This document shows positions 10,235 through 61,339 of a DNA stretch of 64,000 bases, piece after piece. The notes beneath the pieces were generated by a model. It saw only the letters and a list, made by a program, of their open reading frames with translations, was not told where the DNA came from and searched no databases. The DNA comes from an uncultured Candidatus Competibacteraceae bacterium (GTDB lineage Bacteria > Pseudomonadota > Gammaproteobacteria > Competibacterales > Competibacteraceae). Each line of letters opens with the position of its first letter. Positions within the stretch are counted from its first letter, which is position 1. A program made the translations under genes and the position numbers. The stretch lies in contig CAZDVY010000001.1 of NCBI GenBank assembly GCA_964508935.1, positions 7,493-71,492 of the forward strand, written 5' to 3'.

Positions 10235-10285
10235 TCCCCCGCCACTCCGATTCCGCCAGCACCGACCATTCCAAAGGGCAGCCCG

Positions 10286-41945: not shown

Positions 41946-43586
41946 ATGTCTGTTCCCAGCAACCTGCCGGTCTGGCAAGCATTGCAAGTTCATCATACCG
42001 CCATCGCTGACCTGCATCTGCGTGACTTGTTCGCCGCCGATCCCGGGCGTTTTAACAAGTTCTCCCGGCGCTTCGGCGACCTGCTGGTAGATTTTTCCAA
42101 GCACCGCATCACCGAAGAAACCTTGAGTCTGCTCATCGAACTGGCCCGCCAGGCGCAACTACCCGCCTGCGCCGAGCGGATGTTCAGCGGCGAGATCATC
42201 AACCACACCGAACAGCGCGCGGTGCTGCACGTCGCGTTGCGCAACCGGAGCGACCGGCCGATCTTCGTCAAGGGTCAGGACGTGATGCCGGAAGTGAACA
42301 ATGTGCTGGAGCACATGCGCAAGTTCGCTGATCAGATTCGCCGGGGCAAGTGGCGTGGCCACACCGGCAAGCGGATTCGCGACGTGGTCAATATCGGCAT
42401 CGGCGGTTCCGATCTGGGACCGAAGATGGTTTGCCAGGCATTGGAGCCTTACGGCGATCCGACCTTGCGGATGCATTTTGTCTCCAACGTTGATGGCGCG
42501 CACATCAGCCATGTCCTGGCGGAGTGTGACCCGGAAAGCACCTTGTTCATCGTGGCCTCCAAGACCTTCACCACCCAGGAAACCATGACCAATGCCCACA
42601 CTGCCCGCGTCTGGCTGATCAAGGAACTGGGCGATGAGGCGGCGGTGGCCAAGCATTTCGTCGCGGTGTCCACCAATACGAAGGGAGTGAGCGCCTTCGG
42701 CATTGACACAGCCAACATGTTCGAGTTCTGGGACTGGGTCGGCGGACGCTATTCACTGTGGTCGGCTATCGGCCTGCCGATCATGGTCTATCTGGGCATG
42801 GAGAATTTCCTGGAGTTGCAGGAAGGCGCCCACGAAATGGACGAACACTTCCGCACCGCGCCGCTGGAGGAAAATCTGCCGGTCATTCTGGCATTGCTCG
42901 GCGTCTGGTACATCGATTTCTTCGGTGCGGACAGCCAGGTCACGCTGGTTTACGACGATTACCTGCGCTCGTTGCCGGATTATCTGCAACAACTGGACAT
43001 GGAGAGTAACGGCAAGTCTATCGACCGCGACGGTCAACCGGTGACGGTCAAGACCGGGCCGATTCTGTGGGGCGGCCTGGGGAATAATGGCCAGCACGCT
43101 TTTTACCAGTTGCTGCATCAGGGCACACATCTGGTTCCAGCGGATTTTCTGGCCCCAGCGCACAGCCCGAATCCCATCGGCGACCATCATGCAATTCTGT
43201 TGGCCAACTGCCTGGCCCAGGCTGAGGCGCTGATGGTCGGCAAGACCGAGGCTCAGGCCCGCGCTGAATTGGAAAAGCAGGGGCTGAGCGGCGAAGCATT
43301 GGAGCAGTTGTTGCCGTACAAAGTCTTCCCCGGCAACCGACCCAGCACCAGCTTGTTTTATCGCCGGCTGACTCCGAAAGTCTTAGGCTCACTGCTGGCG
43401 ATGTACGAGCACAAAGTGTTCACCCAGGGCGTAATCTGGAATATCAATTCCTTCGATCAGTGGGGTGTGGAACTGGGCAAGCAACTGGCGAACGCCATTC
43501 TCCCTGAGTTGAAGGGCGAACAGTCCGTAGCGGGGCATGACGCGTCGACCGTTGGCCTGATCGAATTCTGTCGCGCTGCGGACTGA
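41946..43586 (+). CDS. pgi: Glucose-6-phosphate isomerase
   Basis: 546 aa. [46 protein letters not shown] and QLLHQGT. Confidence 0.93.
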
Positions 43587-43600
43587 CAGCAGCGGTTTGA

Positions 43601-44401
43601 TCAATGGCCCGTTTGTGCCGATGTCAGCGGGCCTTTTTTAGCGACTCCATACCGCACGGCATACCATAACCGCCCCAGCCATTCATAACCGTCGTAGTGA
43701 ATTTCCGCAATCGCCGCAACCGAAGGTAACCAGGACTGGGGATCGAGCGGTTCCAGTTGTTCATTGAAGAACAGGGTAGGCGCTGGAATGACGTTCAACC
43801 CCTGCGCCTGGAAAGCGGCGACAGCGCGCGGCAAATGCACGGCGTTACTGACCAGCAGGACAGTCTGAATGTGGCGCTCGCGTAGCAATGCGGCGCTGTT
43901 GACGGCATTTTCCCAGGTATTCCGGCTCATCGTTTCGGCGCTGACCGCACTCAGGCCAAACTCCTGCTCCAAAATGGCCTTCATTAAATCGGCTTCGGCA
44001 GGCTCTTCGGCGCCGGCCCGACTGCCGCGTCCACCGCTGGTCAGAACGGGCAACCCGGCTTGCCGCGCCAGCCGGGCGGCGTAGCGCACCCGACCCAGGG
44101 TACGATGATGCACGGTCGGGCTATTGCCGTATTCCGACGCATCCTCGTGCAATCCCCCGCCCAACACGACAATCGCCTCCGGTCGCAGCGATGACAGAAC
44201 CTGCTCGGTCAGCGGCGGATAAATCTGCAAGGAACGGTTTAACAGGCTGGCGGTGAAAGGGATGCTGCATAAATAGTTCAGCACTGCCCCGGTCAGTAGC
44301 AGCGTTAAACCGGGAGGTGGATGCCAGCGCCAGAGCAGCACACCGAGCAAGCTCATCAGTAACAGCCCGCCGGGAGGTAGCAACAAGCTCTTGATCAGCA
44401 T
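43601..44401 (-). CDS. DUF218 (YdcF/ElyC-like) membrane protein
   Basis: Two N-terminal TM helices, then AIVVLGGGL, VLTSGGRG and LLVSNAVHLPRA, typical of DUF218 proteins. Confidence 0.7.
   Translation of the reverse strand: MLIKSLLLPPGGLLLMSLLGVLLWRWHPPPGLTLLLTGAVLNYLCSIPFTASLLNRSLQIYPPLTEQVLSSLRPEAIVVLGGGLHEDASEYGNSPTVHHRTLGRVRYAARLARQAGLPVLTSGGRGSRAGAEEPAEADLMKAILEQEFGLSAVSAETMSRNTWENAVNSAALLRERHIQTVLLVSNAVHLPRAVAAFQAQGLNVIPAPTLFFNEQLEPLDPQSWLPSVAAIAEIHYDGYEWLGRLWYAVRYGVAKKGPLTSAQTGH
43606..43639 (+). terminator. Rho-independent terminator candidate for pgi
   Basis: ggcccg (43606-43611) pairs with cgggcc (43628-43633), followed by TTTTTT (43634-43639). Begins 20 nt after the pgi stop and lies inside the 3' end of the convergent DUF218 gene. 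Confidence 0.5.
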
Positions 44402-44529
44402 CAGTGCGAAACCGGGCAGACGAGGCAGGGAGGCTGATTGACACCGCCATGACGACGACGCACGATGCTTCTATAATCAATCATTCACAATATATCCATC
44501 AGTCCGTCATAGACCCGGAGAATGCCCCC

Positions 44530-44790
44530 ATGTTTGGAGAGAGTCACGATTTATTCCATGAGTTTCCCGAGTACAGGGACCGGATTGCTGAGCTGAAAGC
44601 TGTCAATGCCCAGTTCGCAGTGTTGTATGACGAATATCATACGGTCAACGCCGAAGTGGAACGGATCGAATTACAGATTGAGACTCCTTCAGACTTTTAT
44701 ACCGAGACCCTGAAAAAGCAGCGGCTACACCTCAAGGATGAGATTTACGCCATCCTGCGGACCCACTCACGCGCCGGAGCGTTGATCTGA
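44530..44790 (+). CDS. DUF465 (YdcH-like) small protein
   Basis: From ATG 44530: MFGESHDLFHEFPEYRDRIAELKAVNAQFAVLYDEYHTVNAEVERIE...LKKQRLHLKDEIYAIL. This is the DUF465 pattern. 86 aa. Confidence 0.75.
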   Translation: MFGESHDLFHEFPEYRDRIAELKAVNAQFAVLYDEYHTVNAEVERIELQIETPSDFYTETLKKQRLHLKDEIYAILRTHSRAGALI

Positions 44791-45114
44791 AAGCCGTTGA
44801 GAAGATACTCCATTCCCCTCTCCTCCTGAGGACGAGGGGGAGAGAGGCGCATCTAGCTCCCTGGAAAGGGGGGGAGTGCGTCGCCGCCGGACGGTGGTTC
44901 GATCGACTGCTGGCGCAGCTCTGGCCCGCGCCTGGCGCAGCCAGCCGAGGACGCAGCGCTCGATCTTATCCTGACTGGCCGGCGACAGATCGCGGAAAAT
45001 CAATGTTCCGGCACCAAGCAACAGGGTCAATCCACCCAGAAAGGTGACCAGGGGTTGCATGAACGCAATGGACAAAACCGCCAAGAGCGCGAGCAGAACA
45101 TGTCGAATTTTCAA
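44767..45114 (-). CDS. Small hypothetical membrane protein translationally coupled to the PP2C gene (locus B)
   Basis: TTG 45114-45112 overlaps the PP2C TGA 45113-45111 (TTGA). Hydrophobic IRHVLLALLAVLSIAFMQPLVTFLGGLTLLLGAGTLIF, then an Arg-rich and Ser/Gly-rich tail. The start is inferred. The track ORF runs on to 45174 inside the PP2C gene. Confidence 0.4.
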   Translation of the reverse strand: MKIRHVLLALLAVLSIAFMQPLVTFLGGLTLLLGAGTLIFRDLSPASQDKIERCVLGWLRQARARAAPAVDRTTVRRRRTPPLSRELDAPLSPSSSGGEGNGVSSQRLSDQRSGA

Positions 45115-46109
45115 GAGGCCCCTCCAGCATAGTCCTTGGGCTGGGTGAGTTTGCGCATGAGAATGACCGTACAATTATCATCCGGTTGGCATTGCTGCTG
45201 GCGGATGGTGGTCGCCAGTTCGGCCAATAATTCATCCAGGAGTTCCTCGATCGGTCGATGCGGTTGCGCCAACAGCATCGACCATCGCCGGATAAACGCT
45301 TGCGGATAATGCAGATGCCAAAGGCCATCGCTGGCCAGCAGGTAGACCCAATCGGGTTCCAGCGTCAGGGAGCGACGGTCGTTCAACCCACGCAAAAACA
45401 GGGGCAAATTGCCATCATGCAATTCATAAAGCTCCTCATCAATCGTATCCGCATAGAGATTCGGCGTCCCCAGGGTGCTGCCCAAAATAAAGGCCTGACT
45501 GATTTGGGAACTGGTCTGGACATGGACTTGCTGCCACCACTGGGCGCTGTCCAGCAGGCCCAACAGGGCGAGGTGAGTAGCGGGTACATGGTCTATCGTC
45601 AGGCACTGCACATGGTGGGCGTCAATGGCGTAAATGCGTGAATCGCCTACATGGAACAGCAGTCCGGGGGAATGGGGCGGAATTTCGAGTAGAATGAGCG
45701 TACAACCGGTTTCCAGCCCCGCTTGTTGAAATTCCTGATACAGCCGCCGGTGCAAGAGATGCAACTCATTGGATAGTTGAGCGAGTTCGACAACGGCTGG
45801 CAGTTCGAGCAGCCCTTCGACTGCTTTTTCCGAGGCTTCCCGTCCATGACTGTGACCACCCATACCATCAAGCACTGCCAGTCGTCGATGTCCGTGTGGC
45901 CAGCCGGTCAGTTGCAACTGGGTTTCCTGTTCGCGCCAAAGGAACCGGGCGCGTCCCCGGCCGTCAATCAGTAAAAAATTATCCTGGTTTTCCTTGCGCC
46001 CGTGGCCAGTTGGTGAAAGCAGCGAGCGCACAGCGATCTCCAACTGGGGGCCGCGACAGGATGATGCGCGATGAGGCGCCGCGTTTGAAAAAGAGGAATG
46101 AGTATGCAT
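45111..46109 (-). CDS. PP2C-family Ser/Thr protein phosphatase (locus B)
   Basis: GRKENQDNF, LAVLDGMGGHSHGREASE, LLASDGLWH and QPDDNCTVILMR. 332 aa. Confidence 0.85.
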   Translation of the reverse strand: MHTHSSFSNAAPHRASSCRGPQLEIAVRSLLSPTGHGRKENQDNFLLIDGRGRARFLWREQETQLQLTGWPHGHRRLAVLDGMGGHSHGREASEKAVEGLLELPAVVELAQLSNELHLLHRRLYQEFQQAGLETGCTLILLEIPPHSPGLLFHVGDSRIYAIDAHHVQCLTIDHVPATHLALLGLLDSAQWWQQVHVQTSSQISQAFILGSTLGTPNLYADTIDEELYELHDGNLPLFLRGLNDRRSLTLEPDWVYLLASDGLWHLHYPQAFIRRWSMLLAQPHRPIEELLDELLAELATTIRQQQCQPDDNCTVILMRKLTQPKDYAGGAS

Positions 46110-46304
46110 CTAAAGTCGGGTCATCGTCGTGAGCAACAGACATGATCAGTCCACCGGGCGGACAAGGTTCGATCCGTGGCGCCGGTGCTTCCTCGTGATC
46201 AGGCGCCCAGTCGTTTCATCCTTCTGCTAGACTAACTTAATGATGCGCCTTACGGCTGTTAATTCAAATAAATCTTTTGGAACTCTTTGATCAAACGATG
46301 GCTT

Positions 46305-48995
46305 ATGGATATCGAAACGCGTCTTGAGGAACTTGCGCAGGCTTATGCCGCTGGCCGTCTGAACGAAGCCGAGCTGGCGCGTCTTCAGGAAGAAGCCCTG
46401 CGCATAGTAGCAGACGATGGCGACCATGTACGGTTGTCAGACAGCGGCCTGCCCAGAGGAGAAAGCGATCCGGGAGGATCGCCGGCGGCTCCGGGAGCGT
46501 TGACGGCTGGGCGGGTGATTGGTCCTCCCGACCGGCAAATGCGACTGGTGCATGATCTCAGTGGTCGAGGACGTATCTGGCTAGCATACCCCGCTTTTTC
46601 TTCACAGGACGGCGGCGAACCTGCTGACGAATTCCGGGCCATCAAAATTTTTCTGCCCGCTGGTTACGAATCGGGTTCGATCGACTCAGTGCGCGACGAG
46701 CGGGCGTCGCGGGCGGATTTGATCGGCTTGCGTTCCTATCTCGCCAAAGCCAGGGCGCGGGTTGAGCTGGCCGTGAAACTCGACCATCCGGTAATCGCCC
46801 GCATCTATGGCTGGCGACAAGGTTCTGACGGATGGCCATTCGCTGAAATGGAATACCTCAACCCTCATCACGGTCGCAGCTTGGCGCAACTGCTTAAAGA
46901 ACAGGGAGGGGATGGGCTGTCCTGGGAGATGGCCGGAAAATGGTTGCGTCCAGTCGCGGCCGCTCTGGATTATGCGCGCCGCGAACATCGATTGGCCCAC
47001 CAGCATCTCGATGCAGACACCGTCTTCGTTACTGATCAGGGAACAGCTCGATTATTAGGCTTTGGTTTGGCGGCTGAAATTCGGGAACCACGCAGTGTTC
47101 TGTTTAGCACGGGTGGATCAGGGCGCGAGGCCACCGGAGAGGGTGCGATCGAATCGGTGGCCGCCGAAACGACCTTCCGCCGTGATGTCTTCGCTTTAGC
47201 GCTCTTGGCGTATCGGTTGCTGGCCGGACACAGCGTCCAGGAAGCCCAGGGCCAGCCGCCAGGCGCGGTGCCGCGCCCACCGGGATTGACGGACGACGCC
47301 TGGCAGGTTTTGCGGCGCGGCTTGGCGTACCCAAGTGAACTGTGTCCGACCGATGCCGGCCAGTTCATTCAGGCGCTGGACGCGGCGCAACGGCCAGCAA
47401 TAGCGTCTTCAGGCCGTGGTTCCCTGCCGAAGTGGACCTGGGCCTTGATGGTCGGACTAGCCTTGGCGATTAGCTTGGGCGTCTATTGGTTCAGCACGCC
47501 CATCGATCAGAGAACCGAACAGATCAGCTCCGAGGGCGTCGCTGGGCCGCCCTTATCTGGCGAACCGGAGCAAGGGACGACCACACCGGTGGAAGCGCCG
47601 GTCGAGGAAGGCGTTGCGTTACGGGAAGCAGAACGTGAAATCGACCAGCGCGCTTTCGAGGCTGCCCGCCGGATCGATACGGTTGCGGCTTACCAGATGT
47701 ATTTGCAACGCTGCCCGCAGTGTGGCTATGGCAAGGATGCGCGAGTTGCGATCAAGGGTTTGGAAACCCGAAAAAAAATCGAAGCGCTTAAAGCGGATTT
47801 CGCAGCACTGGCCACAGCGTTGGAGGAAGGGCGTGAAGAGCGTGGCAGCGAAGCGCTGGCCCGCCTGGATGCGCTGGCGACGTTAACGCCGGATGATCCA
47901 TTGATCACTGCTGGTCGGCAGCAATTAGCGCGCAGTTGGGTGAAAATGGCGCTGATCAGCCTGAACAAACCCGACCCGGACGAGGCGCGCAAATGGCTGA
48001 AAAAAGCGGAAGCCATCCAGCCGGAATTGCCGGAACTGGTCGCGCTGAATCAAGCGCTTAAACAGGCGGAAGCGGTTGAGCAGATCAAGCAAACCGATAC
48101 TGAAGCGTTCGCCGCCACCCGGCGCGCTGACACTCGCCGGGCCTACTGGGCCTATCTCGACCGTTGTGCGACGGGTTGCCGCCATCGCGCCGAAGCCGAA
48201 GCGGCTCTCGCCCGACTGGCCCCTGCTTATCCCGTGTTGCGGGACCGGCTAAACGACGGTTCGCAAGGGCCAGAAATGGTGGTGATTCCGGCCGGTGAAT
48301 TCCAGATGGGATCGCCATCCTCCGAAGTCGGTCGTTACAGCGATGAACCCACCCGGGCAGTGCGCATCGAAAAATCATTAGCAATCGGCAAATATGAAGT
48401 GATGTTTCACGAATATGACCGGTTTGCGACAGCGACGGGAAAGCCTCTGCCGGACGATCATGACTGGGGGCGCGGTCGGCGGCCGGTCATTAATGTCGAC
48501 TGGAAAAACGCTACTGCATATGCCGAGTGGCTGTCTCAGCAGACCGGCCAGCGCTATCGTCTGCCGACCGAAGCGGAGTGGGAATATGCGGCGCGAGCCG
48601 GAACGACCACCAGTCGCTATTGGGGCGACGATCCGAATGAAGGTTGCGCCTACGCCAACGCCGCTGATCTGGACGGCAAGAAGGTGTTTGTGGGCTGGAC
48701 GGTCATGCAATGCCACGATGGACAGGTCTATACAGCGCCGGTAGGCAACTATCGGAATAATGAGTTCGGTTTGTATGACATGGCAGGCAATGTGCTTGAA
48801 TGGACCTGCTCCATTTACGACAAGGAATCGAAGGCGCCAGCACAGCGTTGCCAGGAGCCAGGCGGCGACCAGGAAATGGTGGTGCGCGGCGGCTCCTGGA
48901 GTGACGAACCGCGCAACGTGCGTTCTGCCGACCGGCATCGCAGCCGTCCAGAATTCCGGGATTACTTCCTGGGATTCCGACTGGTTCGGGAATAG
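46305..48995 (+). CDS. Receptor pseudokinase: degenerate Hanks kinase domain + TM helix + Cys-containing helical repeats + FGE-sulfatase-fold ectodomain (locus B)
   Basis: The kinase-like region keeps RAIKIF (VAIK Lys). It has LSGRGRI for the Gly loop, HQHLDADT for HRDLKPSN and LLGFGLA for DFG. TM helix WTWALMVGLALAISLGVYWF (about 47432-47495). FGE fold from about 48268 (GPEMVVIPAGEFQMGS...RLPTEAEWEYAARAG...GLYDMAGNVLEWT...RGGSW). The ORF opens at TTG 46287; ATG 46305 preferred. Confidence 0.75.
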   Translation: MDIETRLEELAQAYAAGRLNEAELARLQEEALRIVADDGDHVRLSDSGLPRGESDPGGSPAAPGALTAGRVIGPPDRQMRLVHDLSGRGRIWLAYPAFSSQDGGEPADEFRAIKIFLPAGYESGSIDSVRDERASRADLIGLRSYLAKARARVELAVKLDHPVIARIYGWRQGSDGWPFAEMEYLNPHHGRSLAQLLKEQGGDGLSWEMAGKWLRPVAAALDYARREHRLAHQHLDADTVFVTDQGTARLLGFGLAAEIREPRSVLFSTGGSGREATGEGAIESVAAETTFRRDVFALALLAYRLLAGHSVQEAQGQPPGAVPRPPGLTDDAWQVLRRGLAYPSELCPTDAGQFIQALDAAQRPAIASSGRGSLPKWTWALMVGLALAISLGVYWFSTPIDQRTEQISSEGVAGPPLSGEPEQGTTTPVEAPVEEGVALREAEREIDQRAFEAARRIDTVAAYQMYLQRCPQCGYGKDARVAIKGLETRKKIEALKADFAALATALEEGREERGSEALARLDALATLTPDDPLITAGRQQLARSWVKMALISLNKPDPDEARKWLKKAEAIQPELPELVALNQALKQAEAVEQIKQTDTEAFAATRRADTRRAYWAYLDRCATGCRHRAEAEAALARLAPAYPVLRDRLNDGSQGPEMVVIPAGEFQMGSPSSEVGRYSDEPTRAVRIEKSLAIGKYEVMFHEYDRFATATGKPLPDDHDWGRGRRPVINVDWKNATAYAEWLSQQTGQRYRLPTEAEWEYAARAGTTTSRYWGDDPNEGCAYANAADLDGKKVFVGWTVMQCHDGQVYTAPVGNYRNNEFGLYDMAGNVLEWTCSIYDKESKAPAQRCQEPGGDQEMVVRGGSWSDEPRNVRSADRHRSRPEFRDYFLGFRLVRE

Positions 48996-49245
48996 CCCTG
49001 AACGTTTCGGGTAAAATATCCTGCAGTCGGTATTTTTCCGGGTCGACATGTCAGGTTGAGGACTCAGTCTGCGTGTAGGCATTACGGGATATGGCCGCTG
49101 GGCCTTTGCAGCAGGGATCGCTAAAACCATTTGAACAAGAGGGGTGATCCGAATGAGGTTACCCATTATCTGGGAGTATCGAAGCGATCGCGGGGTCCGG
49201 ACCGAAAAGCCCGACGGCGCTCGCTGATGCCATGATTAGGACGCC

Positions 49246-51219
49246 ATGATCAAAAAATCCAATACGCTGCCGGTTGGTTATCGTCTGCATCAGTACCGTA
49301 TTGAATCGGTGCTGGGTGCGGGCGGTTTCGGGATTACTTACATGGCTGTGCACGAAGCGCTGCGGACCCGGGCGGCCATCAAGGAATATTTTCCGGTGGA
49401 GTGGTCTTATCGGGACCGCGACGAGGTCAATGTTCTCGCCAACACTCAGGGCGGCTTGCCAACCTCGGATGCCGGCGAAGACGCCTGCTATACATGGGGG
49501 CTGGAGCGTTTTCTCACGGAAGCCCAGACCCTGGCCCAGGTGAATCATCCCGGTGTGGTGAAAGTACGGGACTTCTTTGAAGCCAATGGCACTGCCTATA
49601 TCGTCATGGACTATGAGGACGGGGAACCGCTGAGTCAACTCCTGCAACGGGAGAAAACCTTACCGGAGATACCGGTCCGCCGGTTGATCGAGGATGTATT
49701 GCCGGCCTTGGACGCCGTACACACTCGGGGCTATCTGCACCGCGATATCAAGCCCGCCAATTTGTACCGCCGCTCGGATGGTCGAACCATCCTGATCGAT
49801 TTTGGCGCAGCGCGCCAGGCGCTGGGTCGTCGTAGTAAAAGCGTGACTAGTGTATTTTCTCCGGGTTATTCGCCGATTGAGCAGTATCTGGTCGATGGCA
49901 AGGGCTATGGTCCTTGGACGGATATCTACGCTCTGGGAACCGTGTTGTATCACTGCGTGACTGGCGCAGCGCCGATTGAAGCGCCGGCGCGCGTCCTCGA
50001 AGATCCCCTGCAACCGGCCGAGGAGCTGGCCGCCGGGCGCTACAACCCGGCATTACTGCGACTGATCGACCGGGCCATGGCGGTCCGTCCCGAAAAGCGG
50101 TTTCAAACCGTCGCTCAGATGCGCGCGGCGTTTGAAGAGCCTTTGGCGAACGACGACGAGCGTACGGTCAAGCTGGAATTGCCGTTGCGCCCGGAGTTGC
50201 ACCGGAGCGGCGAAAAACCACGGCCGGCGGCAGGTGAACTGACTCATGAGTCCCACAAAGCCTCGACTCCCTCGCTATTTCAGCGACTGGGACAACATTG
50301 GCGGATGATGAGCGGATTGACGCTGGCTGTTCTGGTCGCCGGGGGAATAGTAATCTGGATGATGCAAGCGCCAGTCGAGCAACCGCCGATTGAGCAGCCT
50401 TCTCCGGTCAAGCCGACCAGTGGTATACCGCCCACTCATCCCCAACCAGGGCAAGTTTATACCGACCCGACAACAGGAATGGAACTGGTCTGGATTGCGC
50501 CGGGCTGCTTCAACATGGGCAGTCCGGAAACCGAACAGGATCGCAGCGCCAACGAGGCGCCTCATCAGGTTTGTCCGAAGGGCTTCTGGATGGGCAAGAC
50601 CGAAGTAACCAACGCCCAGTATCGACAATTTGAGAGCGGTCATGATAGCGGCGCCTATGAGTCCCACAACCTGAACGCGCCTGATCAGCCGGTCGTCCGG
50701 GTCAGTTGGCAGGAGGCGGTTGCTTACGCTGAATGGCTGTCGGGCAAGACTGGCTTGCGCTATCGACTGCCGACTGAAGCGGAATGGGAATACGCCGCGC
50801 GCGCGGGCCGGGCCGATTCCCGTTACTGGGGTGATGATCCGAATCAGGCTTGCCTTTACGCCAATATCTATGACAAAACCGCCCGTCAGGCCAAGCCGTT
50901 CAACTGGGCCAATTATCCCTGTCAGGATGGACAAGTCGCGGCGGCTCCAGTGGGTCAATACACCGCCAATGCGTTTGGTTTGCATGACCTGCTGGGCAAT
51001 GTTGCGGAATGGACTTGTTCCGAATACGACAGCGCTTATGCAGGTGGTGAAACCCGCTGCGCCGACCCGCAAGCAGCGGCAGGCGGGCGGCGGGTTCTGC
51101 GTGGCGGATCTTGGTCCGATTATCCGGGGCTGGTGCGATTCGCTTATCGTTTTCCCGCTGCGCCGGAATATGGCAAGTGGCGGTCTGATATCGGATTTCG
51201 CCTAGTGTTGGAACCCTGA
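49246..51219 (+). CDS. Receptor Ser/Thr protein kinase with FGE-sulfatase-fold ectodomain (locus B)
   Basis: LGAGGFGITY, AAIKEYFP, HRDIKPANL, LIDFGAAR and SPGYSPIEQY. TM helix MMSGLTLAVLVAGGIVIWMM (about 50305-50365). FGE fold GMELVWIAPGCFNMGS...RLPTEAEWEYAARAG...GLHDLLGNVAEWT...RGGSW. Confidence 0.85.
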   Translation: MIKKSNTLPVGYRLHQYRIESVLGAGGFGITYMAVHEALRTRAAIKEYFPVEWSYRDRDEVNVLANTQGGLPTSDAGEDACYTWGLERFLTEAQTLAQVNHPGVVKVRDFFEANGTAYIVMDYEDGEPLSQLLQREKTLPEIPVRRLIEDVLPALDAVHTRGYLHRDIKPANLYRRSDGRTILIDFGAARQALGRRSKSVTSVFSPGYSPIEQYLVDGKGYGPWTDIYALGTVLYHCVTGAAPIEAPARVLEDPLQPAEELAAGRYNPALLRLIDRAMAVRPEKRFQTVAQMRAAFEEPLANDDERTVKLELPLRPELHRSGEKPRPAAGELTHESHKASTPSLFQRLGQHWRMMSGLTLAVLVAGGIVIWMMQAPVEQPPIEQPSPVKPTSGIPPTHPQPGQVYTDPTTGMELVWIAPGCFNMGSPETEQDRSANEAPHQVCPKGFWMGKTEVTNAQYRQFESGHDSGAYESHNLNAPDQPVVRVSWQEAVAYAEWLSGKTGLRYRLPTEAEWEYAARAGRADSRYWGDDPNQACLYANIYDKTARQAKPFNWANYPCQDGQVAAAPVGQYTANAFGLHDLLGNVAEWTCSEYDSAYAGGETRCADPQAAAGGRRVLRGGSWSDYPGLVRFAYRFPAAPEYGKWRSDIGFRLVLEP

Positions 51220-51245
51220 ATGGACCGGTGAATGGAGAAAACGCC

Positions 51246-53399
51246 ATGAGCGAGACCGTTATGAAAGGGTTAGGGTTTGCGCTAGTGTGGATGCTAGCGC
51301 TGGTGTGGCCGGCCGATTTTGCGCGCGCTGCGGCGCCTGAAGCGCGAATGAACGTGGCAGTCGTCGAATTCAGCGTCATGGGCGATATGCATGAGCAGGC
51401 GGGCGCCGTTATTGCTGATTTGATGACGTCGGTGATTAACAATACCGGGCGCTTCACCCTCAAAGACCGGCTATCGCTATCAGCAGTAGCTAAAATCGCC
51501 AAGGCCCAGGATCAGGAACTGGGCTATACCGGGCTGCTCGATCCCAAGACCGCTGCTGAACTGGGTCAGCGGTATGGTTTAGACGCCGTGGTGATCGGGG
51601 CGGTCAGCAAGCCAGGTGACCTGATTACCGTTACGGCGCGATTGATCGATACCAAGACGGCCTCCCTGCTGCGCAGTGGTCAAATTCAGGGTAAGGACAT
51701 TGACACCATCCAGGTGAAGGTTAATGAACTGGCGGCGATGATTGCGGCGCCACCCGAACCGCCGCGCGCCTACGGATTGACGGTGCGCACCGAGCCGGCG
51801 AGCGCCAGCGTCCGTTTTCTAAACAGCCCAACGCCTTATCAACCGGGCGTCCGGTTGCCGCCTGGTGACTATGAGGTTGAAGTCAGCCAGTCCGGTTATG
51901 CCGCACGCCAGGAATCGGTGAAGATCGTAGACCGCGATGTCGCTATCACCGTGGCGCTGGACAAGGCCAAGTATGGCTTGACGGTGCGCGCTGAACCGGC
52001 GGACGCGCAGATCCGCTTGCTGGATGCCTCGGCCGCCTATCGGCCGGGAGTGGAATTGGCTCCAGGCAATTATGAGATCGAAGTGGTGAAGGACGGCTAT
52101 GTCTCCCGCAAGTTTCCGGTGCGAATTATCGACAGCGCATTGACTGTTCCAGTGACCCTGGAAAAACAACCGCCGCCACCGACACAGTATCGCTTGACGA
52201 TACAGACTGATCCTGCCCAGGCGACGGTTCGGTTACCGGGCGTCAAGACACCCTATCGACCAGGAGTAGAGCTGACGCCGGGAAATTATACGGTTGAGGT
52301 AAGCCAGTCCGGGTATGAGCCACAGCGGGTTACCGTCAATATCGTCGATAGTGATGTGACTGTACCGGTGAAACTGGTCAAATCGACCGAACCCGTCAAG
52401 CCGACCCAGTATCGGTTGACGGTTCGCCCCGATCCGCCAACAGCCAGGATACGGTTGCTGGGAATCAAGGCAGCCTACAAGCCAGGCCTAGCGTTAGCAC
52501 CAGGCAGTTACACGGTTGAGGTAAGCCACCCCGGCTATGATTCAAAACGGGTGTCGGTACGCATTGCGGATAGTGATGTGACTGTGCCGGTGGCCCTGAT
52601 CCAGCAACCCGAACCGCAGCAATACCGGTTGACGGTGCGGGCCGATCCGGCGGATGCCCAGGTGCGGTTATTAGGAACCCGCACAGCGTATCGACCGGGG
52701 GTGGCGCTGGCACCGGGCAGTTATACAGTAGATGTTTCCCGGTCGGGCTACGACTCACAGCGATTGACGGTGCGGGTCACAGATAGCGATGTCACCGTGC
52801 CGGTGGCACTGGCGAAGCAGCCCGAACCCGTGAAACCCGCTGAGTATCGGCTGACGGTGCGCACGACGCCCTCCAGCGCCCGGGTGCGATTGGTCAATTC
52901 CTCGTTTACCTACCGTCCCGGCGTACCCTTGCCGCCCGGCAACTACACGGTCGAGGTGAGTGGACGCGGTTATGAAACCGAGCAGAGGTCAGTGCGGATT
53001 GCCGATCGTGACGTGACGGAATCCATCACTTTGGAACGGGTTGCTACGGCAACCACTCCCGCGCCGCCCCCCCAGCCTGCGGCGCGGCCAGGAACCTGGC
53101 GGATCGGCTCAGTGCAGGTGGACGGCTCGATCAGTGGCGCGGATCGCTCCGAAGTGCAGCGGGTACTTAACCGCTATATCGGGCAGATCGCAACTCGCGA
53201 GAGCCTGCTGGACAGTGCGATGCAGGTCTATCGATCTACCGGGATCACCCTGAATTTCGCGGTGCGGAATTCGGCTTCAGGATCAGCGGAATTATCTGCG
53301 CGGGTTAGTCAGCGGCAGCGGCGCACTTATGAAAGTTCGGTCCCCCTGGTAACCCGTGGCCAACTGGAAAGCTCGGGTTTCAGGGTATCGGTTGATTGA
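51246..53399 (+). CDS. Secreted multidomain protein: LpoB/CsgG-like N-domain, six PEGA-type repeats, POTRA-like C-terminus (locus B)
   Basis: ATG 51246 (GGAGA 8 nt upstream). Signal peptide ...LALVWPADFARA/AAPE. The block VAVVEFSVMGD...AGAVIADLMTSVINNTGRFTLKDR...LGQRYGLDAVVIGAV...ITVTARLIDTKT resembles LpoB/CsgG/TolB-N alpha-beta domains. Six Y(G/R)LTVR..P..A.(V/I)R(L/F)...PG..L.PG.Y.VEVS..GY....V.I.D.DV.V.V.L units follow. The C-terminal WRIGSVQVDGSISGADRSEVQRVLNRYIGQIATRESLLDSAMQVYRSTGI resembles a ShlB-type POTRA. Confidence 0.7.
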   Translation: MSETVMKGLGFALVWMLALVWPADFARAAAPEARMNVAVVEFSVMGDMHEQAGAVIADLMTSVINNTGRFTLKDRLSLSAVAKIAKAQDQELGYTGLLDPKTAAELGQRYGLDAVVIGAVSKPGDLITVTARLIDTKTASLLRSGQIQGKDIDTIQVKVNELAAMIAAPPEPPRAYGLTVRTEPASASVRFLNSPTPYQPGVRLPPGDYEVEVSQSGYAARQESVKIVDRDVAITVALDKAKYGLTVRAEPADAQIRLLDASAAYRPGVELAPGNYEIEVVKDGYVSRKFPVRIIDSALTVPVTLEKQPPPPTQYRLTIQTDPAQATVRLPGVKTPYRPGVELTPGNYTVEVSQSGYEPQRVTVNIVDSDVTVPVKLVKSTEPVKPTQYRLTVRPDPPTARIRLLGIKAAYKPGLALAPGSYTVEVSHPGYDSKRVSVRIADSDVTVPVALIQQPEPQQYRLTVRADPADAQVRLLGTRTAYRPGVALAPGSYTVDVSRSGYDSQRLTVRVTDSDVTVPVALAKQPEPVKPAEYRLTVRTTPSSARVRLVNSSFTYRPGVPLPPGNYTVEVSGRGYETEQRSVRIADRDVTESITLERVATATTPAPPPQPAARPGTWRIGSVQVDGSISGADRSEVQRVLNRYIGQIATRESLLDSAMQVYRSTGITLNFAVRNSASGSAELSARVSQRQRRTYESSVPLVTRGQLESSGFRVSVD
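51771..53043 (+). repeat. Six in-frame tandem coding repeats (201-222 nt period) encoding PEGA-like units
   Basis: The conserved Tyr codons that open each unit sit at 51771, 51972, 52188, 52410, 52623 and 52845. DNA-level similarity is visible, e.g. gatagtgatgtgactgt(a/g)ccggtg in units 3 and 4 and gatagcgatgtcaccgtgccggtg in unit 5. Confidence 0.85.
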
Positions 53400-53411
53400 A
53401 GCTATTCGCTA

Positions 53412-55196
53412 CTACCTGTCGACCCACTCCTGTTTCGGATAACCCGGATGATCGATCATGGCGGTATGGTCGCCGCGCACGATAGGTAGATAGCGCGGCT
53501 TCCAGAACCGGGTGCGCAAATAGGTATCGAGATCGCGCCCGGCCAAATCGATTTTTGTCGCCACCCCTTCCCGCAGAGCCTGTTCAATCACGCGCGCCCC
53601 GACCCGAATGCTGACTTCACGCAGTTCACGCACCGGCGGATAAATACGTCCAGCTTGCAAATGAGCGACCGTCGTGTATTCGGCCAGCGCATAGGCGGCC
53701 TCCAGCACCATGCTATCAGTGATTTCCCGGCATTCGGCCAGCACCACGCCGAAACCCAGACCGGGGAAGATGAAGGCGTTGTTGCCCTGGCCAATGTGAT
53801 GCATCTGACCCTCACGGACGATGTCAGGGAAGGGACTGCCGGTCGCAACAATCGCCCGGCCCTCGCTCCAGTCCAAAATGTCTTCCGGCAACGCTTCGCA
53901 GGCCGATGTAGGGTTGGACAACGGGAAAATAATCGGGCGCGTGGCGTTGCGAGCCATTGCCTGTACGACGGGATGGTTGAAAGCGCCGGCCTGGCCACTC
54001 AATCCCAGCAAGGCCGTCGCCTTGGTGTGTTCAATGGTTTCCAGCAGGGTAGGGACGGCATTGCTAATCCGCCAGTCTGCTATTTTTTCACGGGGCTGCA
54101 GGTAATCCCGCTTGTAAGCTTCTACATTGCGCCCTTCCACCAGCAGACCGTGCGAGTCGAGGACGCAGACCCGGTCGCGAGCTTCTTCGCGGCTGAGACC
54201 TTCACGCATTAGTCCTTGAGTGATGGCCCAGGCCACGCCCACGCCGCCCGCGCCTGCGCCGTGAATGACGATTCGCTGGTCGCACAGCAATTCACCCTTG
54301 AGCCGGCTGGCGGAGATCAGGCCCGCCAGCGCCACTGCGCCTGTACCTTGAATGTCATCGTTAAAGGAGGGAATCTGTTTACGATAACGCTCCAGAACGG
54401 TAAATGCGACATCCTTGGACAGGTCCTCCCACTGGATCACTGCCCGTGGCCAACGATCGTGAATGGCCTTGACGAATTTGTCCAAAAAGGCTAAATAGCG
54501 CTCCCCACGCAACCGCCGCTGCCGGACGCCCAGATAAAACTCATCATTCAGCAATTCCAGCCGGTCGGTGCCGACATCCAGCTTGACCGGCATGGCGTGA
54601 AAAGGATTGACGCCACCACCGATGGTGTAGAGCGCCAGTTTGCCGATGGCGATGGCCAAACCGCCGTAACCCTGGTCGCCGATGCCGAGAATGGCGGAGG
54701 AATCGGTGGCGACGATCATCCGCACATCGTTCCACGGGAAGTTGCGCACCACTCCGGCGGCGCGGTCGATGTTCAGCGGCGAAAAAGATAATCCACGCGG
54801 ATTCTGGTAAAGATGGCTGAATTGTTGCACCGCCTGGCCGACGGTCGGCGTGTAGATGATCGGCATCATCTCTTCGAGGTGCTGTTCCAGTAGTGCGTAG
54901 AACAATGTTTCAGCGCGCTCCTGCAAGGCCCGCAGATACTGATACTTGGCGATGGGATCCGGTTCGCGCAGGAAGCCGCGATAGACCCGCTCAACCTGTT
55001 GTTCCAGCGTATTGACCTGTGGCGGCAGCAGGCCGTCCAGCCCCAGGGCAACGCGCTCGTCCTCAGTAAAGGCCGTGCCCTTATTGCTGAGCACCAGCCG
55101 CAACAGGGCGATGCCTTCCAGATAAACTTCCATGTACTCGCGGCCTTCCGCGTCTTTTCTGATATCGAAATAGGGGCTGATCGGTTCTCGGTTCAT
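53412..55196 (-). CDS. maeA: NAD(P)-dependent malic enzyme
   Basis: From ATG 55196: MNREPISPYFD...LSNKGTAFTEDERVALGLDGLLPP, YTPTVG, FNDDIQGTGAVALAG and HGAGAGGVG. The track ORF to 55331 is an over-extension into the AT-rich spacer. Confidence 0.9.
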   Translation of the reverse strand: MNREPISPYFDIRKDAEGREYMEVYLEGIALLRLVLSNKGTAFTEDERVALGLDGLLPPQVNTLEQQVERVYRGFLREPDPIAKYQYLRALQERAETLFYALLEQHLEEMMPIIYTPTVGQAVQQFSHLYQNPRGLSFSPLNIDRAAGVVRNFPWNDVRMIVATDSSAILGIGDQGYGGLAIAIGKLALYTIGGGVNPFHAMPVKLDVGTDRLELLNDEFYLGVRQRRLRGERYLAFLDKFVKAIHDRWPRAVIQWEDLSKDVAFTVLERYRKQIPSFNDDIQGTGAVALAGLISASRLKGELLCDQRIVIHGAGAGGVGVAWAITQGLMREGLSREEARDRVCVLDSHGLLVEGRNVEAYKRDYLQPREKIADWRISNAVPTLLETIEHTKATALLGLSGQAGAFNHPVVQAMARNATRPIIFPLSNPTSACEALPEDILDWSEGRAIVATGSPFPDIVREGQMHHIGQGNNAFIFPGLGFGVVLAECREITDSMVLEAAYALAEYTTVAHLQAGRIYPPVRELREVSIRVGARVIEQALREGVATKIDLAGRDLDTYLRTRFWKPRYLPIVRGDHTAMIDHPGYPKQEWVDR

Positions 55197-55364
55197 CGTT
55201 GACTTTGTGCGGGTGCGGTTGAAGCCAGGGTTTGAGTGGCAGGAGTAATGCCTAAAATTTTTAAACGGAGAAGTATGGCATTTAAAAATTGTAGAATCAA
55301 ATCGCTGGATCAAAAGTAAAGTGGCATTCATTAGGAACGTTACCCATGATCAGAACCGGGAGAG

Positions 55365-55437
55365 CGGTCCAGATCGGGCGGAATCAGCGCCTGCTCTTCA
55401 TTGTCGCTGATTCCGCCAATCGGTCCAGATTGGACCG
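55365..55437. repeat. Nested inverted/direct repeat element in the maeA-hypothetical divergent intergenic region
   Basis: Reading left to right: cggtccagat (55365-55374). Then a perfect 13-bp stem, ggcggaatcagcg (55377-55389) with cgctgattccgcc (55405-55417), around a 15-nt loop. Then the 7-3-7 palindrome cggtccagattggaccg (55421-55437), which repeats the first decamer. Confidence 0.7.
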
Positions 55438-55653
55438 AATTGGCTTCAGCTCTGTCACAAATTGATAAACAATGTCAATTATTAAAAAGCTTAACGATCA
55501 TCCTGAAGATTGGGTTGAGGTCAACAGTGGAGAGAATTATTAGATTAATCATTAGGATGTTAAATAAGTATGCACTTTAGCAGTTGGGTATGATAGTTGC
55601 TTTATGAGTCTGCACAGGAGTCATTTTCAGGTTAAGCAATTGGAGTCTTTTTT

Positions 55654-56034
55654 ATGAATATGCATCTCCACCGCAAGCAAATCGTTATTTTAGCGCTAGC
55701 TATTGCGTTGGCTGCCGCTTCCTATTGGATTCCCTTGCCACGCCAAACCGACGCTCCACCACCACGGTTGCTTGGCCTCATTGACCAGGCGGCGCCGGTG
55801 GAAGCCATCGCTTATGTCCGGGAACCTGCAACAGTTTGGCGGTTTCCCGTGACTGTACAAGTACCACAGACTCCCATTCAAACTGCTGTCCAGCGGTCGG
55901 CGGCAGAAGTTCATCCACTTCTGTCGTCGCCAGAGGAACGGCAGATCGGCCAACAAGATTTCACTGATGGTGCTCGCTCAACGACCTATCCTTCGTTAGC
56001 ACCGGTCAAGGGACTCGATATTCCTGGGCGCTAA
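55654..56034 (+). CDS. Hypothetical membrane/secreted protein (126 aa)
   Basis: N-terminal hydrophobic segment IVILALAIALAAASYWIPL, then a Pro-rich region. No motif recognised. Sits in an AT-rich spacer. Confidence 0.45.
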   Translation: MNMHLHRKQIVILALAIALAAASYWIPLPRQTDAPPPRLLGLIDQAAPVEAIAYVREPATVWRFPVTVQVPQTPIQTAVQRSAAEVHPLLSSPEERQIGQQDFTDGARSTTYPSLAPVKGLDIPGR

Positions 56035-58523: not shown

Positions 58524-60446
58524 ATGACTATGGTGCAACCGACCACGCCCTCCAAGAGTAGCGCCCGCCGCGCTAATGCGTTGCCGTCCGCCTGCCTGTT
58601 GGATGAGTATCGCATCGACTCCATTCTGGGCGCGGGCGGTTTTGGCGTGACCTACAAGGCGCTGGATACGCACTTGGAGACTTGGGTCGCCATCAAGGAA
58701 TATTTCCCGGTCGAATGGTCGTTCCGCGATGCGGATGGCGTCACGGTGCACCCGAACACCCAAGGCGCAACCAGCGGCCCCGAAGGACAATTGTCAGACT
58801 ATCTCTGGGGGTTGGAGCGCTTTCTCGATGAGGCGCGGGTGCTGGCGCGAGTCCAGCACCCTTATGTGGTTCGGGTAAAGCGCTATTTTCGAGCGCACGG
58901 CACTGCCTACATCGTGATGGATTATGAGGAAGGCGAACCGCTGAGCACCGTTCTGCGCGATGGGGAGACGCTCGGCGAGGATGAGGTGCGCGGCCTGCTC
59001 GAAGATGTGCTTCCGGCGCTGCAGGCTGTCCATGAACAAGGCTATCTGCACCGCGATATCAAGCCCTCCAATCTTTATGTTCGTTCCAGCGATCACCGGG
59101 TCATTCTGATCGACTTCGGCGCAGCGCGGGAGGCGGTGGGCCGACACAGCAAAAGCGTGACCAGTCTGGTGACGCCAGGCTATTCACCGCCGGAACAGTA
59201 CACGACCCGCAATGATCGCTATGGAACCTGGACTGATGTCTACGCCCTCGGCGCTGTACTGTATCGTTGTATCGCTGGTCGCGCTCCGATCGAAGCGGCT
59301 GAACGGCTGCTGGATGACAATCTGGAGCCGGCGATCAAGGTGGGCGCTGGGCGCTACAGCACCAATTTGTTAGAGGTGATTGACCGGGCTTTGGCGGTGC
59401 GTCCGGAACAGCGATTCCTCACCGTGGCCGATATGCAAGCGGCCTTAGCCGGTCCGCAGGATGAGAGCAGCAGCCAGACAGTGATCATGATGCCGCAGGC
59501 CAAGCCGATTAAGCTGGCGCAGCCACTGGGAATATCGCGGATTACTCAACCTCCAGAGAGGTTGGCGGAAGAATCGAACAAGAACAGTCAGCACGACGAG
59601 TTGATGAATATGACGCAGACGCCCACTGCCGCTGACTCTCAACTGCAACGACAGAAACTCCTGCATGTATCACCGTCAGGTGGAGCGGCGTCCCGATGGC
59701 GGCTACCGATCATGCTGGCCGGCGGCGTGACGCTGATGGCGACGGCGGCGATCATCGTCTGGCTCGGATCATCCGAACCGGTACTGGAGCGCACCCCAGT
59801 CTCGGAACAGAAACCGCCGCCTCGCTACAGTCTGAATCAGGGAGAGTTGACCCCATCACCGGCGTCGGTTGAAGCGCCGGTTGTGGTGACAACGCCGCCA
59901 GCGGTCACAGCACCGGAAGCTGCTCCTGCGGCGCCGCCGCCAGCTACGGCGCCCATCTCGCGTGATGCAGTCGAATCTCCGATTCCGGTGGAAAAGGGTT
60001 TAACGAGTCCACCGATTCCGGTAGAAGCACCGATTGTCGAGGGTGGGCCGGAACCATCCGATTCAGGCAGCCGTCCTCCGGCAGCGCAGGATCTGGAAAA
60101 ACCGCCGATTACCGGACCGGGCCAGCAATCAGTCGATACGGGAAAAACGCCGGAAGCAACCCCTGTGGAAAGCGCGCCGTTGCCTGGCCAGACTCCTGCC
60201 GTGACCACTAAGCCATCGGCTGATGCGTCAGCCGCGCAGGCAGTCAAGCCAAAACAGAAACTTCAAGCGAGCGACGCCAAACCACCGCCGAAACGACCTG
60301 CACGGCAAAGAACTGCCCGGAAGCGCAAAGAGCAACCGATCGTTGTTGCGCCGGATCAACCGGTTCAGACGCGGCCAGCACCGGTTGCGCCGAAGCGCAA
60401 TAATCTCTGGGATGCGCCCACTGACTCGGGATTCAACCAAAAATGA
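58524..60446 (+). CDS. Receptor Ser/Thr protein kinase with TM helix and Pro-rich/basic low-complexity ectodomain (locus C)
   Basis: LGAGGFGVTY, VAIKEYFP, HRDIKPSNL, LIDFGAAR and TPGYSPPEQY. TM helix WRLPIMLAGGVTLMATAAIIVWL (about 59695-59765). The tail is rich in P/A/V and ends KPPPKRPARQRTARKRKEQP. No FGE fold. Confidence 0.85.
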   Translation: MTMVQPTTPSKSSARRANALPSACLLDEYRIDSILGAGGFGVTYKALDTHLETWVAIKEYFPVEWSFRDADGVTVHPNTQGATSGPEGQLSDYLWGLERFLDEARVLARVQHPYVVRVKRYFRAHGTAYIVMDYEEGEPLSTVLRDGETLGEDEVRGLLEDVLPALQAVHEQGYLHRDIKPSNLYVRSSDHRVILIDFGAAREAVGRHSKSVTSLVTPGYSPPEQYTTRNDRYGTWTDVYALGAVLYRCIAGRAPIEAAERLLDDNLEPAIKVGAGRYSTNLLEVIDRALAVRPEQRFLTVADMQAALAGPQDESSSQTVIMMPQAKPIKLAQPLGISRITQPPERLAEESNKNSQHDELMNMTQTPTAADSQLQRQKLLHVSPSGGAASRWRLPIMLAGGVTLMATAAIIVWLGSSEPVLERTPVSEQKPPPRYSLNQGELTPSPASVEAPVVVTTPPAVTAPEAAPAAPPPATAPISRDAVESPIPVEKGLTSPPIPVEAPIVEGGPEPSDSGSRPPAAQDLEKPPITGPGQQSVDTGKTPEATPVESAPLPGQTPAVTTKPSADASAAQAVKPKQKLQASDAKPPPKRPARQRTARKRKEQPIVVAPDQPVQTRPAPVAPKRNNLWDAPTDSGFNQK

Positions 60447-60796
60447 AATTCAATCTGTGGCCTTTTTTACGCCGACGGCGTGAATCGATGGAAACAGTAC
60501 CGGTCCGGGCGCGGTTTATCCGTACTGATTCGGTAGGCAAAGGAGATCTGCGTCTGCGCTCAGCCTTATGCCGCCTGGGCCGGGCGCCAGACAACGACAT
60601 AAGCTTTGATAATGACTCGGTTTCCGGGCGTCATGCCGAGGTCTATTACCTGCCTGATGGTTCATTTCAAATCTGTGATTTGAATTCCACCAACGGTACT
60701 TTCGTCAACGGACAGCGGGTTCAAAGTCAACTTCTCAAGAATGGCGATGTGGTGGAATTAGGCGAAGTGCGCTTGCATTTCCGGGTCGGCGATTAG
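60443..60796 (+). CDS. FHA-domain protein 1 (locus C)
   Basis: Its ATG overlaps the kinase TGA (ATGA at 60443-60446). LGRAPDNDISFDNDSVSGRHAEV...ICDLNSTNGTFVNGQRV is a canonical FHA signature (G-R...S-x-x-H...N-G). Confidence 0.85.
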   Translation: MKFNLWPFLRRRRESMETVPVRARFIRTDSVGKGDLRLRSALCRLGRAPDNDISFDNDSVSGRHAEVYYLPDGSFQICDLNSTNGTFVNGQRVQSQLLKNGDVVELGEVRLHFRVGD

Positions 60797-60811
60797 GTCA
60801 GGGTAGGATTT

Positions 60812-61324: not shown

Positions 61325-61339
61325 CACGGAGAGGGCGAT

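Follow-up and report, generated by a model that had tools for sequence, protein, structure and literature searches.

A candidate receptor pseudokinase of Candidatus Competibacteraceae, encoded beside an active Hanks-type kinase

Introduction

The cataloguing of Ser/Thr pseudokinases in bacteria is recent, and a function is known for almost none of them. An atlas from 2025, which covers about 300,000 Ser/Thr kinases of bacteria, distinguishes seven pseudokinase families, ActPs1-3, GLW, CP1, DYD and DLHK; substitutions of the VAIK lysine occur across all seven, this lysine being lost in all members of ActPs1-3, which are actinobacterial, and in 60% of DYD, and the FGE-sulfatase domain is listed solely as a partner domain of the active family Proteo1 (bioRxiv 10.1101/2025.01.12.632604). 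A review of the field describes neither a pseudokinase encoded beside an active kinase nor one linked to an FGE domain (PMC12599244). Here we present the analysis of an 896-codon gene, located at 46305..48995 (+) in a stretch of 64,000 nucleotides (the window) from an uncultured Candidatus Competibacteraceae bacterium (GenBank assembly GCA_964508935.1, contig CAZDVY010000001.1), which encodes a candidate receptor pseudokinase next to an active Hanks kinase.

Like the seven catalogued families, the window protein has a Hanks-type fold with degraded catalytic-triad motifs and is conserved as a family, and like several of them, GLW included, it is membrane-anchored, with a transmembrane (TM) helix C-terminal to the domain. 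It keeps the lysine and is found almost only in Competibacteraceae, unlike ActPs1-3 and DYD. GLW has its eponymous motif at the HRD site and a beta3 Lys replaced by Leu or Trp, whereas the window protein has HQH and K114; CP1 and DLHK are cytosolic multidomain proteins linked to COG3899 and to helicase/DNA2 domains, respectively, whereas the window protein has a TM helix and an FGE-sulfatase ectodomain and none of these accessory domains (all PMC12599244). For none of the seven do the published descriptions mention an FGE-sulfatase ectodomain, or an active kinase as a conserved neighbour. Membership of these families was rejected by the published criteria on account of the retained Lys, the TM helix with a PvdO-like ectodomain, and the fixed kinase neighbour. 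Bacterial pseudokinases are thus already known as a kind, and what is new here is a predicted family outside the seven catalogued ones. An earlier, sequence-only reading of the window had called kinase/pseudokinase receptor pairs poorly described in bacteria, which holds for such pairs but not for Ser/Thr pseudokinases as such (bioRxiv 10.1101/2025.01.12.632604; PMC12599244). Compared by architecture, Proteo1 has the same kinase-TM-FGE-sulfatase layout as the window's active kinases and P0128, the closest active relative of the pseudokinase; its members are canonical kinases, unlike the pseudokinase (bioRxiv 10.1101/2025.01.12.632604).

By analogy, the closest functional templates are MviN and YukC/EssB. 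MviN (MurJ) of Mycobacterium tuberculosis, a member of ActPs3, likewise sits in the membrane, with its pseudokinase domain inside the cell and a binding domain on the extracytoplasmic side (PMC12599244). It differs from the window protein in three respects: a 14-TM flippase is part of the same polypeptide, the VAIK Lys and the greater part of the activation loop are absent, and the gene of its kinase is not a neighbour. In the work of Gee and colleagues from 2012, MviN was reportedly phosphorylated by the active Hanks kinase PknB and then recruited a regulator; it provides the mechanistic template for the idea of a docking platform or substrate. YukC/EssB of type VIIb secretion is laid out like the window protein, a cytoplasmic pseudokinase fold at the N-terminus being joined by one TM helix to an extracytoplasmic domain, and acts as a dimeric scaffold (PMC9600267). 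Its sequence, however, has diverged strongly, it is part of a secretion machine of Firmicutes, and both an FGE-like domain and a partner kinase are missing. Eukaryotes have receptor kinase/pseudokinase pairs, such as HER3 with EGFR or HER2 and the plant receptor-like kinase co-receptors. The window protein resembles the HER3-type pairs in being a dead receptor with an intact ectodomain that is proposed to work with a similar live receptor by allostery or scaffolding; it differs in its opposite topology, with the kinase domain N-terminal and cytoplasmic and the ectodomain C-terminal, and in its independent origin.

Gene and domain organization

The reading frame is open, starts with ATG and translates to 896 amino acids. 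Because the orthologues begin with the same MD.E.RLEEL as the window protein, the ATG at 46305 is preferred over a TTG upstream at 46287. The features of the gene are as follows.

46305..48995 (+): whole pseudokinase gene, encoding in order an N-terminal helix, the pseudokinase domain, a TM helix, a periplasmic helical region and a PvdO/FGE-like domain
46305..46415 (+): N-terminal helical hairpin, residues 1-37 (helices 3-15 and 21-38 in the AlphaFold2 model)
46491..47399 (+): degenerate Hanks-type kinase domain, residues 63-365 (IGP motif, LSGRGRI, K114, HQHLDADT, GFG, Asp294, Cys347)
47433..47489 (+): single TM helix, residues 377-395, WTWALMVGLALAISLGVYW (AlphaFold2 model, translation)
47613..48224 (+): periplasmic all-helical region, residues 437-640 (AlphaFold2 model, orthologue alignment)
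48225..48992 (+): PvdO/FGE-sulfatase-fold ectodomain, residues 641-896 (Pfam, sequence match in the PDB, Foldseek)

A word-indexed search yielded 107 full-length proteins of about 900 amino acids with 47-100% identity over the N-terminal 420 residues, after which the E-value falls abruptly from 1e-95 to 1e-6. The named ones are nearly all from Candidatus Competibacter, Contendobacter or Competibacteraceae metagenome-assembled genomes (MAGs). The orthologue alignment and all residue counts given below are based on 101 full-length proteins. Two orthologues, L036 from a Synechococcaceae-labelled MAG and P0090 from a Phycisphaerales-labelled MAG, show 54-56% identity to the window protein, and the L036 locus has the full Competibacteraceae synteny; their foreign-phylum labels most likely reflect binning contamination, not horizontal transfer.

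With the 101-orthologue alignment as input, AlphaFold2 gave a model with a mean predicted local distance difference test score of 73.7, in which the N-terminal hairpin (residues 3-38) is followed by a bilobal kinase-like domain (about 63-365), the TM helix (377-395), an all-helical periplasmic part (436-637) and a C-terminal domain of mixed alpha/beta structure. The gene product is a single-pass inner-membrane protein with a cytoplasmic Hanks-kinase fold. Reading frame, TM helix and ectodomain are all intact, as had been claimed from the letters alone, Pfam FGE-sulfatase (PF03781) matching residues 655-895 at 178 bits. The N-terminal hairpin is common to the pseudokinases and their active relatives; in several relatives it resembles SHOCT, with sub-threshold Pfam hits only (E 0.001-0.006), and it may be an oligomerisation element.

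The periplasmic helical region contains two copies of an A-Y-x-x-Y-L-x-R-C-(x2-3)-C motif with a long helical segment between them. Their Cys pairs, C470/C473 and C621/C625, are invariant and could be disulfide or metal sites; the two motifs are found in the whole pseudokinase clade and are absent from the active relative P0128.

The ectodomain, which has four invariant Cys, matches Pseudomonas aeruginosa PvdO (5hha) with an E-value of 4.5e-37 and about 33% identity, PvdO also ranking first against the PDB in Foldseek, whereas the E-values to the formylglycine-generating enzymes (FGEs) in the PDB are about 1e-20. The NCBIfam equivalog model of PvdO (NF051459) gave 163.5 bits against a cutoff of 500, and the ectodomain appears to be PvdO-like in fold only. 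Inspected by eye, its segment RGGSWSDEPRNVRSADRHRSRP is without Cys, as is the aligned segment of PvdO; we take this position to be the one at which FGE bears its catalytic Cu-binding Cys pair. PvdO and PorK/GldK, which the ectodomain also resembles, are periplasmic proteins of the FGE fold that are not formylglycine-generating enzymes. Neither is kinase-fused, unlike the window protein: PvdO is a soluble single-domain protein of pyoverdine maturation and PorK a ring lipoprotein of the type IX secretion system. Regarding identities, the ectodomain shares 47% with that of the neighbouring kinase, 49% with that of P0128 and 58-66% with those of distant pseudokinases; the ectodomains of the pseudokinase and its neighbour are judged homologous.

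The degenerate kinase domain

The window encodes three active Hanks kinases (10286-12913, 49246-51219 and 58524-60446), as stated in the sequence-only reading, all with LGAGGFG, AIK, HRD(L/I)KP(S/A)N and DFG. The motifs of the pseudokinase were mapped by MAFFT alignment with these three kinases, by phmmer alignment to StkP, by alignment to a hidden Markov model of the family, and by a gap-free BLASTP alignment to P0128 at 35% identity, in which the pseudokinase side reads REHRLAHQHLDADTVFVTDQGTARLLGFGLA. All four alignments agree on the catalytic motifs, as does the Pfam Pkinase envelope (residues 151-313), and the gap-free alignment to an active kinase fixes the positions of the lost catalytic residues. 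The losses read from the letters (LSGRGRI, HQHLDADT, GFG) and the retention of the RAIK Lys were borne out throughout.

The Gly loop reads LSGRGRI instead of the canonical GxGxxG; Gly87 is present in 82/101 orthologues and Gly89 in 63/101, and the third Gly is replaced by Arg or Gln. The beta3 strand retains RAIK with K114 (46644-46646), which is Lys in 100/101. HQHLDADT (46998-47021) takes the place of the catalytic loop (canonical HRDxKxxN), with the catalytic Asp of HRD changed to His234 (H in 94 orthologues, N in three, G in three and D in one), the catalytic-loop Lys to Asp236 and the Asn to Thr239. Conservation within this loop is high: His232 and His234 are each kept in 94 of the 101 proteins, Gln233 in 96, Asp236 in 92 and Asp238 in 84. 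GFG (47058-47066) replaces DFG, so that the metal-binding Asp is now Gly252; this position holds G in 87 orthologues, S in 12 and A in two, and D in none. Residues of structural importance are retained, namely Asp294 of alphaF (invariant) and the APE-like Glu288, and the Arg of the alphaH-alphaI loop is Cys347 in 100/101 orthologues.

The register in alphaC is less certain. Arg152, present in 100/101 orthologues, lies at the canonical spacing of the alphaC Glu ahead of the HP motif, a position to which MAFFT assigns Lys148 instead, and the BLASTP alignment with P0128 shows a 22-residue alphaC insertion in the pseudokinases, by which Glu132 (E in 89/101) could be the equivalent. The position of the alphaC Glu is thus probably held by Arg152, the insertion leaving room for Glu132.

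That the domain has a kinase fold is indicated by several comparisons. Pfam Pkinase (envelope residues 151-313) scored 26.7 bits, below its gathering threshold (GA) of 31.7, and PK_Tyr_Ser-Thr scored 23.6 bits, just above its GA of 23.1; phmmer matched the pseudokinase to StkP with an E-value of 1e-7, and a Foldseek search of the PDB with the N-terminal domain of the AlphaFold2 model retrieved PknA, PknI and PknB (E 1e-10, target-normalised TM-score 0.69-0.76). In the translation of residues 60-370 no alternative HRD or DFG motif was found, and the comparison with Hanks kinases places the canonical aspartates nowhere else in the domain.

Without the catalytic base, the catalytic-loop Lys and both metal ligands, the domain is a pseudokinase by the sequence definition. 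The earlier prediction of no phosphotransfer agrees with this, and canonical phosphotransfer can be excluded with high confidence on such grounds. Two further conserved elements deserve mention. Residues 328-354 of the C-lobe (LTD.AW.VLRRGLAYPSELCPTDAG.F) are almost invariant among orthologues, as expected of a protein-binding surface, which they suggest. Ser264, in the conserved segment REPRSVLF, aligns with the Ser/Thr cluster in the activation loop of active kinases and may be phosphorylated.

Selection and transcription

No frameshifts or truncations were seen in about 100 orthologues. The ratio of nonsynonymous to synonymous substitution rates (dN/dS) was estimated pairwise by the Nei-Gojobori method between the window and six orthologous loci, where dS was unsaturated. 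It was 0.10-0.15 for the pseudokinase domain, 0.05-0.06 for the kinase domain of the neighbour and 0.02-0.11 for the FGE-like domains; the mean identity to the window was 61% for the pseudokinase domain vs 84% for the neighbour's kinase domain. The pseudokinase domain evolves about twice as fast as the live kinase domain, yet it is clearly constrained, and the values indicate strong purifying selection. Maintenance by selection, proposed from the intact frame, is upheld by these ratios together with the intact orthologues and the conservation of the degenerate motifs themselves.

The pseudokinase gene is covered at low depth by contigs from four metatranscriptomes of sludge or wastewater, one contig bridging the intergenic gap to the neighbouring kinase (48967-49632). 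A scan of the 250-nt gap (48996-49245) found no plus-strand terminator-like site, the scan as a whole yielding no more promoter or terminator sites than shuffled controls.

Origin and relatives of the pseudokinase

The three active kinases of the window share 60-64% identity with each other in the kinase domain and about 27% with the pseudokinase. Distant relatives were collected by an exhaustive phmmer search of 1.8 billion representatives and fall into two layers. In the first are about a dozen representatives that share 35-42% identity and match the pseudokinase in architecture, down to the two periplasmic Cys-pair motifs; their replacements of HRD differ (HRN, HRH, HHN, HRT or HGD), as do those at the DFG site (NFG, DYG, DTG, DFD or DFS). 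The second layer consists of fully canonical kinases (P0128, P0130, P0131 and others) with the N-terminal helix, an 'EIGP..RFRL' motif, and a TM helix and FGE-sulfatase end. In a maximum-likelihood tree all pseudokinase domains form one clade (SH-aLRT 100), which is nested within the active N-helix kinase family (SH-aLRT 98), and the three active kinases of the window are placed on a separate long branch.

From this tree, the identities and the ectodomain similarities it follows that the pseudokinase is not a degenerate copy of its neighbour; judged by these comparisons, it is an old, separately derived lineage that came to be linked to the neighbouring kinase. A recent tandem duplication of the latter is ruled out by the identity of about 27% and the separate clades. 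The term paralogue, used for the pair in the sequence-only reading, is therefore apt for the architecture and the ectodomain (47% identity) but not for the kinase domains.

The MAGs that carry the distant pseudokinases, several per genome, bear the label Competibacteraceae or unclassified proteobacteria. No gene cluster is common to all of their loci, just lineage-local synteny groups. Three representatives of the first layer, P0118, P0120 and P0121, have two tandem pseudokinase domains. Such tandem double-pseudokinases (also at loci L010, L056, L057 and L058) show 33-42% identity and continue, after the second domain, with the TM helix, helical region and FGE-like tail known from the window protein; an 'IGP..RFR' lead-in precedes each of the two domains, whose degraded motifs are mutually unlike, e.g. 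HHH/DFG with HRN/DFG, or HGD/GFA with HGD/NFG. One distant homologue (L065) is split into two open reading frames (8001-9743 and 9985-10707), being either a frameshifted copy or an assembly error.

Gene neighbourhood

The genes surrounding the pseudokinase gene in the window are as follows.

44767..45114 (-): small membrane protein of 115 amino acids; its start overlaps the stop codon of the PP2C gene, and it is kept in many orthologous loci
45111..46109 (-): PP2C-type Ser/Thr phosphatase, divergent from the pseudokinase gene, with DGMGGH and VGDSR motifs
49246..51219 (+): active Hanks kinase of 657 amino acids with a TM helix and an FGE-like ectodomain; canonical GxGxxG, AIK, HRD, KPxN and DFG
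51228..53399 (+): secreted protein, third in the plus-strand string; its CsgG-like N-terminal domain precedes a run of PEGA repeats

From its motifs the PP2C looks active. The PEGA repeats of the secreted protein number about six, its C-terminal segment is distinct, and its gene always follows that of the active kinase in orthologous loci. An Rfam scan of 43000-56000 gave no match.

Synteny was surveyed with one genome per species, which left 46 orthologous loci; those with at least 7.5 kb of downstream sequence (n=29) were considered informative for the downstream kinase. In all 29 the active kinase is encoded on the same strand, downstream of the pseudokinase, and in 18 of them directly next to it; the linkage with the kinase at 49246-51219, noticed in the window, recurs in every informative locus. 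The PP2C gene is divergently upstream of the pseudokinase in 40/42 loci. An Mla-like block is found in Contendobacter-type genomes (loci L023, L027, L032, L037, L041, L044, L046, L047, L049, L052 and L064/L066). Its gene content is known from the sole annotated locus (L007, 10709-14348), namely MlaE, an ABC ATPase, MlaD and a TPR protein, and suggests that the module may be tied to outer-membrane lipid homeostasis.

Two other features of the window were recorded. A second Ser/Thr signalling string (58524-62179) directly follows asnS and consists of an active kinase (640 amino acids, no FGE domain, a long Pro/Ala-rich tail), two short genes and a PP2C (61340-62179). A Type ISP restriction-modification enzyme of 1035 amino acids (20666-23773, -) occupies the only low-GC stretch of the window (0.51-0.53 vs about 0.59) and was probably acquired horizontally.

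Proposed role and alternatives

The intact frame, the low dN/dS and the conserved surface patches indicate a non-catalytic role. As the pseudokinase is strictly linked to a kinase with a homologous ectodomain, to a PP2C and to a PEGA protein, the best supported reading makes it the probable dead partner in a receptor module of kinase and pseudokinase, where it would modulate the live kinase or serve as its docking site or substrate; we hold this with moderate confidence. In such a module, which would be an envelope-signalling system specific to Competibacteraceae, the pseudokinase, the active kinase, the CsgG/PEGA protein, the PP2C and the small membrane protein would act together. The pseudokinase would associate with the active kinase via their periplasmic domains, their kinase-fold surfaces, or both, and would either tune the kinase's activity or offer it a docking platform or substrate; resetting the module would fall to the PP2C. 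Contact between the pseudokinase and its neighbour, the direction in which regulation runs and the sensed signal are presumed here; roles as an allosteric partner or as a decoy, both suggested in the sequence-only reading, appear plausible.

Several observations weigh against this proposal. The kinase domains of the pseudokinase and its neighbour belong to different families, and the pair did not arise by tandem duplication. In 11 of the 29 informative loci about 3.4 kb of Mla-like block stand between pseudokinase and kinase, and genes for a kinase, a PP2C or a PEGA protein are missing within 8 kb of the distant members of the clade (L009, L010, L055-L067), from which the fold evidently works without a co-encoded kinase; the earlier description as a tandem pair accordingly fits the orthologues but neither the distant members nor, strictly, those 11 loci. 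The metatranscriptome contigs may include DNA carry-over. Finally, the beta3 Lys together with a conserved acidic residue (Glu132 or Glu154) leaves nucleotide binding possible.

Of the alternatives, the one that survives best, although we rate it well below even, is that the protein is an autonomous scaffold or sensor, in which a homo-oligomer formed via the SHOCT-like helix recruits cytoplasmic proteins and the adjacency of the kinase reflects a shared regulon or pathway. The absence of neighbouring kinases in the wider clade and the parting of the pair by the Mla-like insertion are in its favour, as are the tandem proteins P0118, P0120 and P0121, which suggest that pairing between pseudokinases suffices, and the near-invariant C-lobe residues 328-354, which suggest a dedicated binding surface. 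It is opposed by the linkage to the kinase in 29/29 loci, maintained even across the Mla-like block, and by the homology of the two ectodomains.

A more specific form of the receptor-module reading, drawn by analogy, can be put forward tentatively and is on present showing rather improbable: the clade would represent a bacterial pair of dead and live receptors like HER3-EGFR, of independent origin and inverted topology, in which the pseudokinase would sense the ligand or provide specificity and switch the kinase allosterically. The tandem double-pseudokinases would then be self-contained versions of the same dimer.

Less likely again, and in our estimate quite unlikely, is a non-canonical enzyme, in which K114 would bind a nucleotide and the rebuilt loop H232-Q-H-L-D236-A-D238 would form a new metal- or nucleotide-dependent active site of different or relocated chemistry. 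Nominal pseudokinases offer precedents in SelO, SidJ and WNK-type exceptions. K114 is kept in 100/101 orthologues, each of the loop residues H232, Q233, H234, D236 and D238 recurs in 84-96 of them, beyond what maintenance of the fold alone needs, and two Gly of the Gly loop are partly retained. However, HQHLDAD is confined to the orthologue group of Competibacteraceae and the motifs of its sisters are varied, which argues against a shared new active site, and both canonical metal ligands are absent.

Two remaining explanations were rejected as highly improbable. An alignment artefact hiding an ordinary active kinase could appeal to the sub-threshold Pfam Pkinase match (26.7 vs 31.7 bits), limited to the C-terminal two thirds of the domain, but is contradicted by four concordant independent alignments, one of them gap-free at 35% identity to an active relative, and by the lack of any other HRD or DFG in residues 60-370. 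A decaying kinase relic, with selection on the ectodomain alone, would fit the faster evolution of the pseudokinase domain (identity 61% vs 84%, dN/dS about twofold) but not its strong purifying selection (dN/dS 0.10-0.15), the lack of frameshifts or truncations in about 100 orthologues, or the long invariant stretches of the C-lobe.

Significance

The value of the finding is moderate, the kind of protein being already known, the organism uncultured and the role predicted from sequence. The family is tractable, having about 100 intact orthologues, a fixed partner set (kinase, PP2C and PEGA protein) and close active relatives, and could reveal whether bacteria use receptor pairs of kinase and pseudokinase as animals and plants do. 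Competibacteraceae are glycogen-accumulating organisms, the rivals of phosphate accumulators in wastewater treatment, and in this lineage the pseudokinase would mark a lineage-specific envelope-signalling module.

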